A DNA stretch of 64,000 nt from an uncultured Candidatus Saccharibacteria bacterium (GCA_964651115.1 CAZYXJ010000002.1:48338-112337); one strand, 5' to 3'; shown: positions 6,846-53,121, counted from the stretch's first letter. Notes: generated by a model not told the origin, from the sequence alone. Numbers and translations are program-made.

Positions 6846-8525
6846 ATGGTGGCTCGCGTCTGGCGTTGGTTTACTCGAGAGTTTTCTAATCTGCACGAAG
6901 CGGCGTTGCTCTTGGGAGTGGCCGCCTTCTCCTCTCAACTTTTGGCGCTGATCCGCGATCGCTTATTGGCCGCCAACTTTGGCGCCAGTGGACAGTTGGA
7001 CGTTTACTACACGGCTTTCCGTTTGCCCGATTTGGTCTATGCCACGATTGCCTCTTTTGTCTCGGTGACTGTTTTGATTCCCTACGTCGTGACGGCTTTG
7101 ACGGAGGGTGATCGTGAGCGCGCGCGACGACTGCTTTCTAGTGTTCTGACGGCCTTTATGGCGGTGATGGTGGTGGCGATGGCGACGGTGTGGTTTTTGT
7201 TACCGTGGTTAGCGCCACGAATCGCTCCCGGCTTTGATCAAGAACAGTTGGCCTTGTTGGTGACTTATTCGCGGATCTTATTGTTTTCGCCCCTCTTTTT
7301 GGGTTTGTCTAACGTGTTGGGGGCGGTGACTCAGTCGGTGAGGCAGTTTTTTGTTTATGCCGCCAGTCCTCTTTTATACAATCTAGGGATTATTATTGGC
7401 GTGGTTTGGCTTTATCCACGCGTGGGACCGACGGGTTTGGTTTGGGGAGTGGTAATCGGGGCTTTTCTCCACGTGGCGATTCAGATCCCGGTGGTGTGGC
7501 GCGCCGGTGTCGCGCCACGTCTCGTTTGGCGTTTGAGTTGGTCGGAACTAGTAACGATTATTCGGACGTCGCTACCCCGCACTCTGGCTTTGGGGGCGCA
7601 TCAATTTACGTTGTTGATTTTGGTGGCCTTGGCTTCGGCGATTGGCGCGGGGGCCGTGTCGGTGTTTAATTTCGCGCTAAATTTGCAGTCGGTGCCGCTC
7701 TCGATTATTGGCGTGAGTTATTCGGTCGCCGCCTTCCCAACTTTGGCGCGTCTGTTTTCTAGTGGTCAGCGGGAGGAATTTTTGAGTCACGTAACGGGCG
7801 CTTTGCGCCACGTGTTATTTTGGTCTTTGCCGGCGACGGTGATGTTTATTGTTTTGCGGGCTCAGATTGTGCGAGTGATTTTGGGCAGTGGATCTTTCGA
7901 TTGGACGGCGACGCGTCTGACGGCCGCCGCGCTGGCCCTCTTCGTCCTGTCGGTTGCCGGACAGAATTTGATCCAATTATTTATGAGGGGCTATTACGCC
8001 TGCGGTCGGACGCGGCGGCCATTTGTGCTCAATGTGGTGGGGCTCTTGGTGTCGGTGGCGGCCGCGCCAGTGTTGGTCTGGTGCTTCCGTACGGCTCCCG
8101 GCTTTCGGGCGGTGGTCGAGAGAATTTTGCGGGTTGATGCCGTCGAGACCACGGCTATTTTGATGTTGCCACTGGCCTTTAGTTTGGGCGTGGCGGTTAA
8201 CGTTAGTTTGTACTGGTATTTTTTCCAAAAAGATTTTGGGCGTTTTTCGCGAGTGGTGGATCGAGCCTTAGGGCAGTCGGCGCTCGGCTCGTTGGTGGCC
8301 GGAGTGGTGACTTACCAGGTGTTGGGTTGGCTGGCGCCGCTGGTTAATCAAAATACTTTTTCGGGGATTTTTGTTCAGGGGGTGGCGGCCGGATTGGCTG
8401 GATTGGTCACCCTCATTATTATCTTGCGAGGCTTTAATAACCGAGAAATTAATGAGATCGAAACTTCGTTACGGCATAAGTTTTGGCGGGCCAAGCCCAT
8501 TGCCCCCGACCCCGAAGGGTTGTAG
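6846..8525 (+). CDS. murJ: Lipid II flippase MurJ (MviN)
   Basis: The N-terminal motif LIRDRLLAANFGASGQLDVYYTAFRLPDL matches MurJ. The protein is ~559 aa with 14-TM-like hydrophobicity. Confidence 0.8.
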   Translation: MVARVWRWFTREFSNLHEAALLLGVAAFSSQLLALIRDRLLAANFGASGQLDVYYTAFRLPDLVYATIASFVSVTVLIPYVVTALTEGDRERARRLLSSVLTAFMAVMVVAMATVWFLLPWLAPRIAPGFDQEQLALLVTYSRILLFSPLFLGLSNVLGAVTQSVRQFFVYAASPLLYNLGIIIGVVWLYPRVGPTGLVWGVVIGAFLHVAIQIPVVWRAGVAPRLVWRLSWSELVTIIRTSLPRTLALGAHQFTLLILVALASAIGAGAVSVFNFALNLQSVPLSIIGVSYSVAAFPTLARLFSSGQREEFLSHVTGALRHVLFWSLPATVMFIVLRAQIVRVILGSGSFDWTATRLTAAALALFVLSVAGQNLIQLFMRGYYACGRTRRPFVLNVVGLLVSVAAAPVLVWCFRTAPGFRAVVERILRVDAVETTAILMLPLAFSLGVAVNVSLYWYFFQKDFGRFSRVVDRALGQSALGSLVAGVVTYQVLGWLAPLVNQNTFSGIFVQGVAAGLAGLVTLIIILRGFNNREINEIETSLRHKFWRAKPIAPDPEGL

Positions 8526-8536
8526 AATGCGCTTCT

Positions 8537-10348
8537 ATGGCTGAAGCCAAATTTATCCGAAATTTCTCGATTATTGCCCATATTGACCACGGTAAATCAA
8601 CCTTGGCCGATCGCTTGCTGGAGGCCACCGCCACCATCGAAAAGCGCAAAATGCGCGAACAGGTGCTGGATAGCATGGATCTGGAGCGCGAGCGGGGAAT
8701 TACGATCAAGATGCAACCGGTGCGCTTGCGCTATCATCGAGGGGCGGAGGAGTATCTTTTCCATCTAATTGATACGCCGGGGCACATTGATTTTTCTTAC
8801 GAAGTGTCGCGGGCCCTTAAGGCCGTTGAAGGGGTTCTGCTATTGGTTGATGCTACCCAGGGCGTCCAGGCTCAGACTTTTACGGTGTTGGCTATGGCTC
8901 AGGAGTTGGGATTGAAAATTATTCCGGTGGTGAACAAAATTGATTTGCCGGTTGCTCGGGTGGAGGAGACGAAGGCGGAGATTGTGAACTTGATTAAGTG
9001 TCGTCCAGAAGAGATTGTGGCCGTTTCGGGCAAGACTGGTGCTGGTGTGCCGGAGTTGTTGGAGGCGATTGTTGATCGTGTGCCACCGCCGACGAGCGAG
9101 TTTCCTACTACGGACGGCGCTCGCGCCTTGGTTTTTGATTTTTCTTATTCGATCCACCAGGGCGTGGTGGTCTATGCCCGAGTTTTTGATGGCGAAATTG
9201 TCACTGGTGATGAGTTGGTGTTTGCGGCCACGGGCGAGAAGTTTACCGCGTTAGAGGTGGGGACTTTCGCGCCGGAGAAGGTGGCGACTGGACGTTTGGC
9301 GGCCGGAGAGATTGGTTACGTGGTAACGGGCATTAAGCGCACGGGCAGTACTCGCGTGGGTGACACGCTGTTGCGGGCTAAAGTGCCATTGCCGCCCGAG
9401 CCAGGTTACGCCGAACCGCGTTCCGTCGTCTGGGCTTCTGTCTATCCGGAAAGCCAGGATGATTTGCCTACTTTGCGTCAGGCTCTGGGTCGCCTCAAGC
9501 TTGGCGATGCCGCTCTCTCGTTTGAAGAAGAGGCCTCCACGACCTTGGGCCGCGGTTTCCGTTGCGGTTTTTTGGGGTTGTTGCATCTAGAAATTATTAG
9601 CGAGCGACTCAAGCGCGAATTTAATTTATCGCTGATTATTGCGACGCCGTCAATTAGTTATACTGTAGAAAATTCTCGAACGGGCGAGCGCGAAGTGATC
9701 TACTCTCCGCACCTTTTTCCTGACGAGACCAAAAATTATCGGATTTGGGAGCCATGGGTCAGCGCGCGAGTGATCGTACCACCAAGTTACGTGGGTAATG
9801 TGATGAAAATTTTTAATGATCACGAAGTGGTGGTGCTGGCCGTCGAAACCTGGGGGACGGACCGAACGCTTTTAACTGTCGAATTGCCGCTGCGCGAACT
9901 GATGCGTAACTTTTTTGATGAACTGAAAAGCGTTTCTTCTGGTTATGCCTCTTTTTCTTATTCTCTTTTGCCCGAACGAGAGGCCGAGGTGATGAAGTTG
10001 GAGGTGCTGGTTAACGAGGAGGTGATCCCGGCTTTTACGCGGGTGGTGGCCCGGCGAAAATTGGATCACGAAGCGCAGGATGTAGCCGAACGGCTGAAAA
10101 ATTTATTACCGCGGCAGTTAATCGCGATCAAGATCCAGGCCCGCGGCGGTGGACGGATTGTGGCCGCCCGCAGTATTAGCGCCATGCGCAAAGACGTTAC
10201 CGACTATCTCTATGGTGGTGATATTACCCGCAAGATGAAATTGCGTGAGAAGCAGAAGAAAGGTAAAAAGAAAATGCAGTCCTTGGGCTCGGTTTCGATC
10301 CCCGAGGAGGTCTTCTTAAAGATGATTAGTGGCGGCGGGCAGAATTAA
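8537..10348 (+). CDS. lepA: Elongation factor 4 (LepA)
   Basis: The in-frame ATG at 8537 gives [29 protein letters not shown], the GTPase G1 motif, plus DTPGHIDF. The conserved LepA C-terminus ends ...EKQKKGKKKM. Confidence 0.9.
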   Translation: MAEAKFIRNFSIIAHIDHGKSTLADRLLEATATIEKRKMREQVLDSMDLERERGITIKMQPVRLRYHRGAEEYLFHLIDTPGHIDFSYEVSRALKAVEGVLLLVDATQGVQAQTFTVLAMAQELGLKIIPVVNKIDLPVARVEETKAEIVNLIKCRPEEIVAVSGKTGAGVPELLEAIVDRVPPPTSEFPTTDGARALVFDFSYSIHQGVVVYARVFDGEIVTGDELVFAATGEKFTALEVGTFAPEKVATGRLAAGEIGYVVTGIKRTGSTRVGDTLLRAKVPLPPEPGYAEPRSVVWASVYPESQDDLPTLRQALGRLKLGDAALSFEEEASTTLGRGFRCGFLGLLHLEIISERLKREFNLSLIIATPSISYTVENSRTGEREVIYSPHLFPDETKNYRIWEPWVSARVIVPPSYVGNVMKIFNDHEVVVLAVETWGTDRTLLTVELPLRELMRNFFDELKSVSSGYASFSYSLLPEREAEVMKLEVLVNEEVIPAFTRVVARRKLDHEAQDVAERLKNLLPRQLIAIKIQARGGGRIVAARSISAMRKDVTDYLYGGDITRKMKLREKQKKGKKKMQSLGSVSIPEEVFLKMISGGGQN

Positions 10349-47882: not shown

Positions 47883-47968
47883 GCGTCGGTGGTAGAGTGG
47901 TCAATTACAACAGACTGTAAATCTGTCGCCCTTTGGGCTACGTAGGTTCGAATCCTACCCGGCGCACC
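47883..47968 (+). tRNA. tRNA-Tyr (anticodon GTA), long variable arm
   Basis: It folds with acceptor GCGTCGG/CCGGCGC, anticodon loop CTGTAAA on stem ACAGA/TCTGT and T-arm GTAGGTTCGAATCCTAC. CC is encoded. Confidence 0.7.
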
Positions 47969-48794: not shown

Positions 48795-48868
48795 GGGCCT
48801 GTAGTTTCAATGGTAAAACATCGGTCTCCAAAACCGAGGTTCTCGGTTCGAATCCGAGCGGGCCCGCC
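48795..48868 (+). tRNA. tRNA-Trp (anticodon CCA)
   Basis: It folds with acceptor GGGCCTG/CGGGCCC, anticodon loop CTCCAAA on stem TCGGT/ACCGA and T-arm CTCGGTTCGAATCCGAG. Confidence 0.8.
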
Positions 48869-49031
48869 CCAAATATCTGTTATTGGCAGATCTGAGTGCC
48901 TTGGGGCACTTGTTTGTTGAAAACGATCAGATGGCATCTACTCAACATGTAAATACTGAGCAGATGTCATGCCCATGTTGGTAGCATCTCCTTGCAAAAA
49001 AGTACACCGCGGCTTATACTCATTTATACCT

Positions 49032-49667
49032 ATGCTTGATCACCTGAACGAGAACGACAAGAAGGCCTACGCCCTAATCCGCAACCGTCTCGTGCACGGC
49101 ATGGAGGCCCCCACCCTCAGGGAGATAAATGAGGTGACCGGGAAAGCTTCGCCGCGGTCGGCCGTGCTGGCGCTTGAGCGCCTTGAGCGCGCCGGGCTTA
49201 TCCGCCGCGCCGGAAGAAAGATCCGCCTGACCAGACCGAGCCTCGCATCGAACGCCTCGGTATCGACCGTGAATGTTCCGCTCGTCGGCAGCATCGCGGC
49301 TGGCGCACCGATCCTCGCAGAGGAGAACGTCGAGGCGGTGATTCCGGTTTCGACCGCGCTCGCTCGGCCGGGATCGAAGTACTTCCTGCTCCGCGTTTCC
49401 GGAACGTCGATGAACGAAGCAAAGATTGATGGTTCGAAGATAGAGGGCGGCAGCATCGTGCTCGTGCGCCAGCAGAATTCCGCTGACGACGGACAGGTGG
49501 TTGTCGCGCTCATCAACGACGAAGCAACGGTGAAGATACTCGAACGCAAGAACGGCGTCGTCATCCTCCGCCCGAAGTCGTCTGACCAGCATTCGCCGAT
49601 CGTATTAACAGATAACTGCGCTATTCAGGGCGTGGTGGTGGGAGTCCTGCCGCCCGGCCTGCTCTAA
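49032..49667 (+). CDS. lexA: LexA-like S24-family transcriptional repressor (island-borne)
   Basis: An N-terminal wHTH is followed by an S24 peptidase domain with GSIAAGAP (cleavage-site region), VSGTSM (catalytic Ser) and KIL (catalytic Lys). The start was moved to the ATG at 49032. The ORF-track start is 48969. Confidence 0.7.
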   Translation: MLDHLNENDKKAYALIRNRLVHGMEAPTLREINEVTGKASPRSAVLALERLERAGLIRRAGRKIRLTRPSLASNASVSTVNVPLVGSIAAGAPILAEENVEAVIPVSTALARPGSKYFLLRVSGTSMNEAKIDGSKIEGGSIVLVRQQNSADDGQVVVALINDEATVKILERKNGVVILRPKSSDQHSPIVLTDNCAIQGVVVGVLPPGLL

Positions 49668-49671
49668 ACAT

Positions 49672-49899
49672 ATGGCAAAGAACATCCACACCGTATTCAA
49701 CTCCGACAAGCACCGCTGGGAGAACAAGTCCGAGGGAAGCGCGAAGCCCCTCTCGTGGCACCGCACCAAGGATAACGCGGAAGACCGCGCCCAGGACATC
49801 GCGGAGAACAAGAAGGTCGAGCATTTTATCCATGGTAAAGACGGAAAGATCCAGGAGCGCAACAGCTACGGGAACGATCCATTCCCGCCTCGCGGCTAA
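49672..49899 (+). CDS. DUF2188 domain protein
   Basis: The W.HRTKDNAEDRAQDIAENKKVEHFIHGKDGKIQE pattern is typical of DUF2188. It sits 5 nt after lexA. Confidence 0.5.
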   Translation: MAKNIHTVFNSDKHRWENKSEGSAKPLSWHRTKDNAEDRAQDIAENKKVEHFIHGKDGKIQERNSYGNDPFPPRG

Positions 49900-49904
49900 C
49901 ACCC

Positions 49905-50327
49905 ATGGAATCGAAATTGAAACACCTTGAATTCATTCAGGACGCCATCAAACGGATGGCGGGCAACTCATTCCTGCTCAGGGGGTGGAGTATCACCTTG
50001 GTGATTGCGATCTTCACTCTTGCCAGCCAGACCTACCGGCCGATCTACGTTTGGATCGCCCTTTTTATAACGGTGGTGTTCTGGCTTCTCGACTCGTACT
50101 ACCTCCGTCAGGAACGCCGCTTCCGCTGCCTCTACGAGATAGTCCGGGTGAAAGACCCTGGGAGCATCGACTTCTCGATGTCGCTCCCGAAGAAACACTG
50201 CAGCAACTGCAGCTGGTTCTCGGCAGCCAGATCCCCCATCTTTACCGTGTTCTACGGATTAATAACCATGATCTTGATCGCGATCCTGCTCGGGATCTAC
50301 CTCAATATCTCAATAACCCTAAAATAA
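49905..50327 (+). CDS. Small 2-3 TM membrane protein (hypothetical)
   Basis: A 140 aa ORF has hydrophobic helices GWSITLVIAIFTLA, IYVWIALFITVVFWLL and FTVFYGLITMILIAILLGIYL. It is tightly packed in the cassette. Confidence 0.45.
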   Translation: MESKLKHLEFIQDAIKRMAGNSFLLRGWSITLVIAIFTLASQTYRPIYVWIALFITVVFWLLDSYYLRQERRFRCLYEIVRVKDPGSIDFSMSLPKKHCSNCSWFSAARSPIFTVFYGLITMILIAILLGIYLNISITLK

Positions 50328-50330
50328 TTT

Positions 50331-50975
50331 ATGGCCCGAAAAATATTCTTCAGTTTCCATTATGAGCGCGATGCTTGGCGAGCCGGCCAGGTTCGCAACA
50401 GCGACTTGCTCCCTAACGAGGATGAACGCGGATTCATCGACGCAGCGGCATGGGAGGAAATAAAGCGCAAAGGCGATGCGGCGATTCAGAACTGGATCAA
50501 CGAGCAGCTTGAAGGCACCTCGGTCACAGTCGTTCTAATTGGAGCAGAAACCTCGCAACGCCCGTGGGTTGATTACGAAATCCGCACCAGCTGGGAGCGA
50601 GGCAATGCCATCATCGGCCTCTACATCCACGGCGTGAAAGATCAGGAGAGCAAGACTGACACGAAGGGCGCAAATCCTCTCGACGGCATCTATCTCGCTG
50701 ACGGGCAGCCACTCTCAAGCGCATGCAAGACTTATGACTGGGTTCTCAACGACGGGCGCAACAATCTCGGCGGCTGGGCAGATCTCGCTGCAAAGGAACG
50801 CGCAGAGTACAAGGGCGAAACTAAGCTCAAGGTCGGAGCGGTAAAGGGCTTGGTGCCGCCTCCAACCCGCCCGACAACTCCGGGACTTATTAATCCGACC
50901 ATGCCACGAACCGCGCCCAACACAGGCTTCGTGCCTCATTCTCCGCATTCGGACTATGCTGACGGAGAGCGATAA
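50331..50975 (+). CDS. TIR-like domain protein (ThsB-like / DUF1863-type)
   Basis: The N-terminus MARKIFFSFHYERDAWRAGQVRN, then GTSVTVVLIGAETSQRPWVDYEIRTSWERGNAIIGLYIHG, matches my recollection of the conserved blocks of the MTH538/ThsB TIR-like family. A Pro-rich C-terminal tail follows. Confidence 0.6.
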   Translation: MARKIFFSFHYERDAWRAGQVRNSDLLPNEDERGFIDAAAWEEIKRKGDAAIQNWINEQLEGTSVTVVLIGAETSQRPWVDYEIRTSWERGNAIIGLYIHGVKDQESKTDTKGANPLDGIYLADGQPLSSACKTYDWVLNDGRNNLGGWADLAAKERAEYKGETKLKVGAVKGLVPPPTRPTTPGLINPTMPRTAPNTGFVPHSPHSDYADGER

Positions 50976-51660
50976 GCAGTGGCTGGCGGAAAACTATCCG
51001 AATCTTTCGGTCGAATCAGATAACCGGGTTTTTGGCGAGGTGCCGTTCGTTGCGACCTACAACGCTGAGACTGGACGGTTTTTGCAGATTACTCCTGACG
51101 TCGTAGACGGCGTGGGAGGATTGCGACTGTCCGGAACATTTTGTATCGCCATAGCAGAGCGAACTACGACGCCTAACTCGCGCCTGCCGGCGCTCACCGT
51201 CGAAGGAGTTGATACGCTGCCGGATCGCCACTTCAACCAGTCTGACCTCAGCGCCTGCATGTGCAATCCTCTCGAGGAAGACGAATATCTAGAGCCTGCG
51301 TTCGATTTTCAGAGATACTTCAAGGAGTTGGTGATCCCGTTTCTTTACGGCCAGCTGTGCTATTCACAAGAGACGCGATGGCCTTGGTTCGACTACGCAC
51401 ATGGTGGCGTAGGGACAATTGAGGCGTTCTCCAAAAATCCCACACCAGCCAAAGCGGAGGAATGTATCGGAATCATCTCGCGCGAAATCCGTCTGTGGCC
51501 GCTAGTTAAACGGTTGCTGCTACAGACGGGTGACATAAAGGGACACGCTCCATGCCTGTGTCCGAAGCGCGATCATTTACGGCGATGCCATCCTGTAGCG
51601 CTTACAGGTTTGAGGCTTCTAAGGGACGCGGTGAAAACGCACAAGATCCAGCTCCCGTAA
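50956..51660 (+). CDS. Hypothetical Cys-rich protein, translationally coupled to the TIR-like gene (candidate effector/sensor partner)
   Basis: A 234 aa ORF overlaps the TIR gene by 20 nt. Its Cys/His clusters (CMCNP, CYSQ, HAPCLCPKRDHLRRCHP) suggest metal binding. No family was recognised. Confidence 0.4.
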   Translation: MLTESDKQWLAENYPNLSVESDNRVFGEVPFVATYNAETGRFLQITPDVVDGVGGLRLSGTFCIAIAERTTTPNSRLPALTVEGVDTLPDRHFNQSDLSACMCNPLEEDEYLEPAFDFQRYFKELVIPFLYGQLCYSQETRWPWFDYAHGGVGTIEAFSKNPTPAKAEECIGIISREIRLWPLVKRLLLQTGDIKGHAPCLCPKRDHLRRCHPVALTGLRLLRDAVKTHKIQLP

Positions 51661-51710
51661 AAGTGACACATGAATGTCCCGTTTCAGTGTCACTTTTGTA
51701 ACTTTTCAAA
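51661..51710 (+). terminator. Rho-independent terminator ending the cassette
   Basis: The 10-bp stem AAAGTGACAC...GTGTCACTTT is followed by TGTAACTTTTCAAAAAA. Confidence 0.55.
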
Positions 51711-51874: not shown

Positions 51875-52450
51875 TTATGGATGGTCGCGGAGGGAGTTGA
51901 GAAAGGCGGTCATTTCATTCATCGTTCTTTGTTGGAAGTCTTTTGTTCCGGTCAAGTTGATTACCTCTTCGGGAAGCTCGTGCCAACTTTCGGCTCCAGC
52001 ATCGCAGAGGGTAATAATGTGATCAAAAATCTCAAAATTCCCCACGGCCGAGCAGGTTTCTATTCCTGCCCGGGTAAGTCCTTGCCACCGAGGGCGACCC
52101 ACGATCACTGTTAGATTTGGGAACTTTTGACGGTTCGTCGAATTTTGTATCAGTGCCCTAAGCCTTTCTGCTTCCATAAAAGCGTTTTTAGCAGTCCACT
52201 GAGATTCCACTTCATCCACTTCAGCTTTAGCCACAACAAGCCTAGCTGGGGCGAGCTGGATAAAGGGGAAGTATTTCCGCCAATTTTTTGACTCCTGGTC
52301 CGTTTCTTCGTGAGTTACATAACGGCAATTTTTGATGTGGAATCCGTGTTGGCAGAGGGGGGTGAGCAGATCAATTAGGGGTTTGCTAAATCCTTTTTCC
52401 CTCAGCCATTTTTGGCTCGCTTTCTCGGGCAGAAGCGCCTTTGTGTTCAT
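51875..52450 (-). CDS. Hypothetical protein, paralog A (191 aa)
   Basis: It shares a W(K/R)(H/K)(Y/F)FPFI.L block and the N-terminal pattern with the 52588-53121 product. Its lower GC and AAA/AGG codons look foreign. Confidence 0.4.
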   Translation of the reverse strand: MNTKALLPEKASQKWLREKGFSKPLIDLLTPLCQHGFHIKNCRYVTHEETDQESKNWRKYFPFIQLAPARLVVAKAEVDEVESQWTAKNAFMEAERLRALIQNSTNRQKFPNLTVIVGRPRWQGLTRAGIETCSAVGNFEIFDHIITLCDAGAESWHELPEEVINLTGTKDFQQRTMNEMTAFLNSLRDHP

Positions 52451-52587: not shown

Positions 52588-53121
52588 TTACTTGGTCGGG
52601 AGATTGTCCATGAGCCACTTGCCGAAGGCCACCAATTCTTTACGGCCCCGCTCTTGGAATCTTTTCCGTTTGGTTGGATTGTTATATTCGCGCGGAATTT
52701 TGGCCACCCAGGGTCCGCCCCGGTCACAGAGGGTCAGGTACCAGGCCAGATGTTCTGGAGAAGGTGTTGGCCGTTGACCGTAGATTTTTCCTCGGTGAAC
52801 CTCAAGATCCTTTTTGAATTTGTGGTTAAAGCGGTCCACCAGGTCTGACAGCCGATGGAACTGTCTTTCGTCATTGTCGTCGATGCGTGGCAGTGAGGTG
52901 AAGGTTATGACCGACCCTCGATATGTACCCTCGACTGGCTCGTTGGTTGTCAGGGTTATGAAAGGGAAATGTTTCCAACGTGCGCCCAGCACCGTAAATC
53001 GATGGTAGAAAAGAGCTTCCACCGCATCCCTTAGTGGGTGAGTGGAGCCCATTTTTTGCAACAGGGGGTTTTGGGGCAGATAGCATTTCATCCTTTCGAT
53101 GAAAAGTTCTTGAGGAGACAA
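52588..53121 (-). CDS. Hypothetical protein, paralog B (177 aa)
   Basis: See paralog A. It is divergent, but the shared blocks and the duplicated 3' hairpin indicate a tandem duplication. Confidence 0.4.
   Translation of the reverse strand: MSPQELFIERMKCYLPQNPLLQKMGSTHPLRDAVEALFYHRFTVLGARWKHFPFITLTTNEPVEGTYRGSVITFTSLPRIDDNDERQFHRLSDLVDRFNHKFKKDLEVHRGKIYGQRPTPSPEHLAWYLTLCDRGGPWVAKIPREYNNPTKRKRFQERGRKELVAFGKWLMDNLPTK

Follow-up and report, generated by a model that had tools for sequence, protein, structure and literature searches.

The gene studied here is the last of five genes packed tightly on the plus strand of a 64,000-nucleotide (nt) stretch of DNA from an uncultured Candidatus Saccharibacteria bacterium (GCA_964651115.1, CAZYXJ010000002.1:48338-112337), which as a whole we call the window. 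We conclude that its product of 234 amino acids (aa) is a divergent member of the ubiquitin-conjugating (UBC) or E2 fold with a SEC-C-like zinc knuckle. The gene overlaps the end of a gene for a ThsB-type TIR enzyme, and we consider it probable that the protein acts in immune signaling as an accessory enzyme of the E2-only kind, a member of the family that includes the E2 of type II-short (E2-only) antiphage signaling systems based on cyclic oligonucleotides (CBASS) and placed here on a Thoeris-like TIR. What does such a protein do? Most likely it is a regulator that captures the C-terminal tail of its partner, and no new effector or sensor. A preliminary interpretation made before any database search, the sequence-only reading, had located the open reading frame (ORF) and its 20-nt overlap with the TIR gene exactly and had proposed a novel effector or signal receptor.

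Family, fold and conserved residues

The PADLOC hidden Markov models for the CBASS E2 match the window protein over nearly its full length (PDLC00872, 1.5e-18; 00865, 3.9e-17; 00871, 8.6e-16; 00861, 2.8e-12), and homologues on plasmids reach 1e-51 to 8e-70 on the same models. In view of the first of these matches and of the UBC/E2 fold, the earlier statement that the protein resembles none of the known families is not borne out. A word-indexed search returned 131 homologues, all of them unnamed and without Pfam domains, and an exhaustive profile search found 1370 clusters at 50% identity with E<=1e-3 and 478 with E<=1e-10; a phage collection contained no homologue. The gene is genuine and no chance ORF, as the homologues, the profile matches and the conserved overlap with the upstream gene attest. 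One 343-aa entry (P0125) was considered as a natural fusion of ThsB and E2, but what joins the two parts seems to be a tail read through a frameshift, and the entry was not used.

Conservation was read from a 28-sequence alignment of the family, and the same alignment was given to AlphaFold2 (AF2). The resulting model (predicted local distance difference test, 92.7; predicted template modeling score, 0.86) describes a soluble alpha/beta protein that begins with an N-terminal helix, continues through a five-strand antiparallel meander, a long H...C loop and a long helix, and ends in helices arranged around a Cys/His knuckle. The elements that define the UBC fold, namely an N-terminal helix, a four-stranded antiparallel meander and a long crossover helix, are all predicted in it. 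In the fold comparison the Serratia E2 is the second-best structural match, and Tsg101 UEV and UBE2S are also named. The model contains no hydrophobic segment resembling a transmembrane (TM) helix, in agreement with the earlier remark that the N-terminal region lacks one. The protein is a single domain without a ThiF region, and it showed neither a sensor domain of the SLOG, SAVED, Macro or CARF type nor a TM segment or toxic domain.

Which residues could form an active site? UBC enzymes carry an HPN...Cys motif after the last strand of the meander and before the long helix. The conserved loop of the window protein lies at the same place, after the last meander strand (E79-82) and before the long helix spanning residues 118-139. 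In this loop R91, H92, C101 and P105 are invariant, F93, Q95, D97, S99 and C103 are at least 90% conserved, and N94 is the majority residue at a variable position; W142-P-W144 and H149-G150 are invariant elsewhere in the protein. We presume that C101 and H92 are the active-site pair, from topology and invariance rather than from a residue-level alignment.

The second conserved element is the C-terminal knuckle, CxCx8CH, in which C200, C202, C211 and H212 are all invariant. The Pfam SEC-C model (PF02810) is reached by two of the 28 members (best E 6.5e-4) and not by the window protein itself, and RefSeq labels the plasmid homologues 'SEC-C metal-binding domain-containing protein'. A zinc-binding module, as predicted from the sequence at the outset, is therefore plausible. 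Of the Cys/His clusters on which that prediction drew, all the strings are present; C101 is invariant and C103 nearly so in CMCNP, and the four Cys/His positions of CLCP-x8-CH are invariant, but C134 of the CYSQ string is not conserved.

Partner enzymes and the tail motif

We fetched 125 further loci, 45 of them from GTDB species genomes and 80 from metagenomes, and classified the gene directly upstream of the E2 in each. The 95 non-redundant upstream partners comprise 68 ThsB-like TIR proteins, 24 CD-NTases (confirmed on a sample as PADLOC 'Cyclase', 1e-50 to 1e-127), two metallo-beta-lactamase (MBL)-fold proteins and one unclear case. By taxon the loci belong to Patescibacteria, Acidobacteriota, Bacteroidota, Proteobacteria, Gemmatimonadota and Actinomycetota, and some lie on contigs that bear the label Halobacteriota. 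The tight coupling to a TIR gene, which the sequence-only reading had emphasized, is conserved across phyla, and the TIR-like gene itself proves to be of the ThsB type by Pfam and by two PADLOC models (Table 1). An overlap of 20 nt, as in the window, is kept in 58 of the 95 non-redundant pairs. No ThiF (the ubiquitin-activating enzyme, E1) or JAB gene was found among 71 non-redundant operon neighbors, nor in the Joint Genome Institute (JGI) gene calls.

Individual loci illustrate the range of partners. In Zambryskibacteria, a homologue 58% identical to the window protein comes after genes for a SAVED effector and a CD-NTase, with an overlap of 7 nt; this is a textbook E2-only (type II-short) CBASS. 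A 45%-identical homologue occurs on many peat and soil contigs in the order ThsB-E2-ThsB-ThsA(SIR2-SLOG), again with a 20-nt overlap; this is type I Thoeris with an extra E2. Two plasmids from cultured Bacteroidota supply further cases, one of them with a fourth partner class. On the Haliscomenobacter plasmid pHALHY02 a CD-NTase precedes the E2, which there bears the RefSeq SEC-C name. On plasmid pA2BH1 of Chryseobacterium sp. ANT_H2B (L134, 3344-5465), PycTM and a PycC Pycsar cyclase (2e-116) ending in ...NRPWLKRS are followed, with a 19-nt overlap, by the E2 (1e-51), in what looks like an E2-regulated Pycsar operon. The two MBL-fold partners (L015:4962-5999 and L053:5022-5996; Pfam Lactamase_B, PADLOC PDC-M48B) have a tail of the PxxPW/Y type, and MBL-fold proteins may be a further class of E2-controlled enzyme.

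The effectors that accompany this one E2 family vary. PDC-M50A, a protein with three TM segments, lies near 27 of 66 TIR-linked E2s and SIR2-SLOG ThsA near 11; according to locus, others are SLOG-patatin, a SLOG-only protein with a TIR_2 protein, SAVED and PycTM. Six Acidobacterial loci (L014, L017, L085, L089, L096 and L101, at about 7300-9400) encode ThsB-E2-ThsB, a TIR_2 protein of 408-422 aa, a SLOG-only protein of 270 aa and another ThsB, and in L046 a SLOG-patatin protein follows the E2; these arrangements are further effector and receptor types on the same E2 module. The proposal that the window protein is itself the effector or the signal receptor fits poorly with this pattern, in which the same E2 family follows synthases that use quite different effectors (M50A, ThsA, SLOG-patatin, SAVED and PycTM).

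What do the partners share? The Pfam and PADLOC TIR models cover only aa 1-158 of the window ThsB, which leaves about 55 residues as a Pro-rich C-terminal extension. The partner tails, whatever the class of enzyme, follow the consensus [A/P/T]-S-A-G-F-A-P-[R/K/H]-[S/A]-P-[W/H], in which the first Pro is present in 94 of 94 tails, the second Pro in 90, the W/H in 93, the Phe in 80 and the Gly in 64. The residue past W/H is small in 90 of 94 (C in 53, S in 24, A in 10, G in 3), and it is followed by a further 1-11 residues, mostly encoded within the overlap with the E2 start. With 2-12 residues always present past W/H, there is always something to cleave off. A loose version of the motif, P..[PQ][WHY] in the last 18 aa, occurs in 94 of the 95 partners; of the 54 remaining TIR proteins in these loci one has it, and of 1633 background ORFs 10 do. 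In the window the motif reads G199-FVPHSPH-S207 and is followed by DYADGER.

The tail appears to travel with the E2 and not with the enzyme that bears it. The CD-NTases of L009 and L055 have tails that differ little from the window ThsB tail (TTPGLINP...PNTGFVPHSPHSDYADGER) and likewise carry PNTGFVPHSPHSDYA(D/N)GER; the E2s of these two loci are 75% identical to the window E2, and the nearest TIR-linked E2 is 82% identical. Among the non-redundant pairs, the 11 in which the E2 shares 58% identity or more with that of the window (five TIR and six CD-NTase) all have a tail of the ...SPH form, and 71 of the 74 other pairs have a ...PW tail, so that in these alignments the tail variant tracks the E2 clade and not the partner class. 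In pairwise identity, E2s linked to TIRs and those linked to CD-NTases are intermingled at several points. Judged from these sequences, the tail of about 30 residues acts together with the E2 as a single portable cassette, which has moved repeatedly between classes of signal synthase. An E2 that always adjoins a signal-making enzyme with a dedicated tail has the anatomy of an accessory regulator, like Cap2 or the E2 of E2-CBASS.

Proposed mechanism and its alternatives

The closest biochemical precedent is the E2-CBASS of Serratia, in which the E2, needing neither E1 nor ATP, cuts off the residue past the conserved C-terminal Gly406 of CdnG, forms a His87-dependent thioester at Cys101 and then an isopeptide at Lys159, and builds cGAS chains that activate cGAMP synthesis (bioRxiv 10.1101/2022.05.25.493364; PMC12948482). 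For Thoeris, operons with Cap2, Cap3 and a tailed ThsB have been reported in a preprint of December 2025 and proposed to act in the manner of type II CBASS (bioRxiv 10.64898/2025.12.03.692087).

By analogy with the Serratia system, we propose that the window cassette could work as follows. ThsB would make an NAD-derived signal upon infection, and this signal would open or assemble the membrane effector. Where the disordered ThsB tail ends, the E2 would recognize a linear motif, GFxP[RKH][SA]P[WH]-small, whereupon Cys101, aided by His92, would attack the peptide bond past the motif and form a thioester without E1 or ATP. The last few residues of the tail would be released (seven, if the cut falls after S207), at a site that would parallel the aromatic-small-leaving arrangement Y405-G406-E407 of Serratia. 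ThsB could then be passed to a lysine on the E2, on another ThsB or on other proteins, which would prime or multimerize the TIR and tune its output; the zinc knuckle might buttress or cap the active site. The analysis shows the fold, the family, the gene order and the tail motif with its joint inheritance with the E2; that the capture is covalent, where the tail is cut and how TIR activity responds are all inferred from Serratia E2-CBASS, and on the same analogy priming or multimerizing is the most likely form of TIR regulation. In its most general form, which we advance tentatively and hold to be less likely than not, the proposal is that the tail and the zinc-knuckle E2 make up a portable, E1-free 'auto-ubiquitin-like' cassette that could place any immune second-messenger synthase (TIR, CD-NTase, Pycsar cyclase or MBL-fold enzyme) under the control of covalent self-conjugation, with PxxP[WH]-small in place of a C-terminal glycine as the acyl donor. 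If so, 'poly-TIRylation' would gate Thoeris-like TIR signaling, a control layer that has not been described, and the family would represent a second, Gly-independent solution to substrate recognition by an E2.

Several results weigh against this account. The window protein has no match in Pfam or NCBIfam, including the curated E2 families UQ_con, Prok-E2 and E2-ntca; among its 28 relatives only three reach Pfam E2-ntca (PF20298, 'prokaryotic E2'), at E 0.072. Searches of the PDB with phmmer (the protein) and hmmsearch (the 28-sequence profile) returned no solved E2 and nothing relevant. An hhalign comparison of the family profile with human UBE2D2 did not align the region of the active site, and for this reason we infer the correspondence with HPN...Cys and do not read it from an alignment. 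Finally, a terminal Gly defines the substrates of ubiquitin-like, Cap2 and Serratia systems, and the tails described here have no conserved terminal Gly: a Gly follows W/H in only three of 94, and a leaving peptide is present. The chemistry may therefore differ from that of the known systems, or the binding may be non-covalent.

The missing glycine leaves room for a non-catalytic clamp or guard, a reading that we regard as unlikely. The E2-like protein would bind the ThsB tail with PxxPW in its groove and hold the TIR monomeric and inactive until a phage cue or damage to the tail set it free, and Cys101 would be structural or serve as a redox or zinc ligand. However, the H92...C101 loop is invariant over more than 28 diverse members, as expected of a catalytic dyad. 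In addition, the same PADLOC models recognize the E2 of E2-only CBASS, the E2 of Serratia, which ranks second among the structural matches, has been shown to act covalently, and a leaving peptide is always present past the motif.

Less probable again is an infection sensor, in which the zinc knuckle and the helical C-terminal half would bind a phage protein or nucleic acid and relay the event to the synthase tethered by its tail. A cassette that is portable among four unrelated synthase classes is what one would expect of a shared input module, the knuckle is invariant, and the means by which ThsB and CD-NTases detect phage are understood only in part. Yet Pfam and NCBIfam scans gave no match to a nucleic-acid-binding domain, many Acidobacterial loci encode a second, tail-less ThsB that could not use such an input, and the published CBASS Cap2 and E2 are regulators, not sensors. 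The original idea of a novel effector or a receptor of the TIR-made signal, prompted by a gene that adjoins the TIR gene and whose product Pfam and NCBIfam do not recognize, is highly improbable for a UBC-fold protein that has none of the sensor, TM or toxic domains sought and whose family accompanies CD-NTases, a Pycsar cyclase and TIR proteins, enzymes making chemically different signals, at loci with separate dedicated effectors. We favor an E2 that regulates its partner through the tail, and the E2-like module points to a ubiquitin-like, E1-free control layer on TIR signaling.

The operon and comparison with known systems

The features of the locus are collected in Table 1. The gaps between the five genes are 4, 5 and 3 nt, followed by the 20-nt overlap of TIR and E2. 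RNA folding places a hairpin of -18.5 kcal/mol (z -3.7) at the end of the operon, and none of 200 shuffled sequences was equally stable.

Table 1. Features of the defense operon, in window coordinates
Feature	Position	Strand	Evidence
LexA-like repressor (helix-turn-helix and S24 autopeptidase), first gene of the operon	48969..49667	+	Pfam Peptidase_S24 1.3e-26, LexA_DNA_bind 3.6e-6
Small DUF2188 protein (PADLOC PDC-S16)	49672..49899	+	Pfam DUF2188 3.9e-17, PADLOC PDC-S16 3.8e-27
Membrane protein of 140 aa, PADLOC PDC-M50A; candidate effector of the TIR signal	49905..50327	+	PADLOC PDC-M50A 2.5e-45
ThsB-type TIR, 214 aa: TIR domain at about aa 1-160 and 55-aa Pro-rich C-terminal tail	50331..50975	+	Pfam ThsB_TIR (PF08937) 5.4e-26, PADLOC ThsB1 1.3e-64, PDC-M50B 4e-60
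ThsB tail motif G199-F-V-P-H-S-P-H-S207, proposed E2 recognition and attachment element	50925..50951	+	motif statistics
E2/UBC-fold protein, 234 aa, with C-terminal zinc knuckle (gene under study)	50956..51660	+	ATG start
Presumed E2 active-site loop R91-H-F-N-Q-S-D-L-S-A-C101-M-C-N-P105	51226..51270	+	conservation and topology
Zinc knuckle C200-L-C202-x8-C211-H212, SEC-C-like	51553..51591	+	four invariant residues, SEC-C matches in relatives
Hairpin then U-rich tract directly 3' of the E2 stop codon, likely operon terminator	51658..51698	+	RNA fold

Which gene encodes the effector? The signal made by the TIR probably acts on the PDC-M50A membrane protein, which is encoded on the other side of the TIR gene. 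By eye this protein has three hydrophobic segments, and an alignment of the family (A2) shows H7, L8, Q12, R17, W28, F59-W60, D63, E70 and S91-M92 to be invariant. Members of the family weakly match DUF3278 (14 of 21) and DUF2270 (7 of 21, best E 3e-3). DUF2270 is ThsF, the 3'cADPR-activated effector of type V Thoeris (bioRxiv 10.64898/2025.12.03.692087), and these weak sequence matches hint at a distant link between it and PDC-M50A. The PDC-M50A family is very large, with at least 2950 clusters at 90% identity, none of them annotated in Pfam; most members occur without an E2, which makes the E2 an optional add-on. In the window ThsB a WVDYEI motif with a putative catalytic Glu was recognized by eye only.

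In 22 of 85 non-redundant loci the operon, be it of the TIR-E2, CD-NTase-E2 or MBL-E2 kind, has a LexA-like gene ahead of it, which suggests DNA-damage-inducible (SOS-type) expression of the whole cassette. We considered that in this genome the LexA-like gene might be the host's housekeeping LexA; against this, the same LexA-like gene accompanies the cassette in unrelated phyla. It heads operons, often together with DUF2188, in L009, L015, L021, L026, L038, L041, L042 and L045 and likewise in L053, L055, L057, L058, L061 and L097. An AAG cleavage site and Ser and Lys motifs were recognized by eye in the LexA-like protein. The DUF2188 gene accompanies the LexA-like gene before the TIR, CD-NTase and MBL versions alike. 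A 2025 preprint lists DUF2188 as a putative Thoeris effector; we did not adopt this assignment, as the gene also heads CD-NTase-E2 and MBL-E2 operons, which suggests a regulatory or independent role and no TIR-specific effector.

Genes for tRNA-Tyr (47883-47968) and tRNA-Trp (48795-48868) lie directly upstream of the operon, and the relative from Zambryskibacteria has a serine recombinase right beside its E2 (L005, 6712-8040); in view of these genes, the cassette may occupy an integrative element. Just past the operon are two convergent ORFs on the minus strand, 51875-52450 (191 aa) and 52588-53121 (177 aa), without a significant match in Pfam, NCBIfam or PADLOC, which possibly belong to the same island.

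To our knowledge, CD-NTases are the only bacterial immune enzymes for which biochemical work has shown ubiquitin-like control, and for Thoeris only the Cap2/Cap3 operons have been noted, in passing. A literature search of incomplete coverage for E2 with Thoeris or TIR found only Cap2/Cap3-Thoeris, and no E2-only Thoeris, PxxP[WH] tail or pairing of an E2 with a Pycsar or MBL partner. In the sampled E2 subfamily a TIR is the most frequent partner, accounting for 68 of 95 non-redundant loci in Patescibacteria, Acidobacteriota and others. The co-inheritance of tail motif and E2, swapped among four synthase classes, suggests a simple recognition code in which the motif, Cys101 and His92 are the points to probe, and the pair offers a handle on how TIR enzymes stay off and switch on. 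If the proposed chemistry is correct, E1-independent E2 catalysis would reach a non-glycine acyl donor. In public databases these proteins are annotated as 'hypothetical' or 'SEC-C metal-binding', and the PADLOC definition of PDC-M50 misses the third gene.

How does the cassette compare with known systems? The window protein is homologous to the E2 of E2-only CBASS and, by analogy, would work like it. Compared with SmE2 of Serratia marcescens (bound to CdnG, PDB 8HSB), it is about 75 residues longer and adds the invariant CxCx8CH knuckle and three or four extra helices, and the two have no HMMER-detectable sequence similarity. The partner of SmE2 is a CD-NTase, whereas that of the window protein is a TIR; the Serratia tail is a folded helix/beta-sheet module with a conserved terminal Gly, whereas the window side presents a linear PxxP[WH]-small element on a disordered Pro-rich tail. 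In comparison to type II CBASS with Cap2 (an E1-E2 fusion) and Cap3 (a JAB protein), and to Cap2/Cap3 Thoeris, the cassette lacks a terminal Gly/Ala as well as the E1 and JAB sought among the 71 neighbors, and the lack of E1 would call for an ATP-independent route, unlike Cap2/Cap3. The Bub/Bil systems (BubB E2, PDB 9EAV) combine a ubiquitin-like protein with E1 and a deubiquitinase (DUB); the window cassette has neither E1 nor DUB, and the tail of the enzyme would stand in for 'ubiquitin'. The SEC-C motif, the C-terminal zinc motif of SecA, shares CxCx8C[H/C] with the knuckle, and some members read CPCGSG..K..CH; in the window protein, however, the motif is inserted into an enzyme of the E2 fold, most members score under the Pfam cutoff, and there is no link to secretion.

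On the Thoeris side, the window contains the ThsB-type TIR of that system, and the two genes upstream of the E2 match PDC-M50A (a small membrane protein) and PDC-M50B (a ThsB-like TIR), 3 nt apart. PDC-M50 is defined as two genes, with a TIR model that extends to about residue 160, whereas the window TIR has a 55-aa tail and the E2 is a third gene. Like type V Thoeris (ThsB and ThsF/DUF2270), the window system has a small candidate effector with three membrane segments, although the similarity of M50A to DUF2270 is marginal. The window contains no CD-NTase, and the neighbor of the E2 is a ThsB TIR; a CD-NTase neighbor is found in 24 of 95 relatives. With neither a CD-NTase neighbor nor a terminal Gly, the protein is best filed as an E2-only accessory member associated with Thoeris/PDC-M50 and not as a CBASS component.

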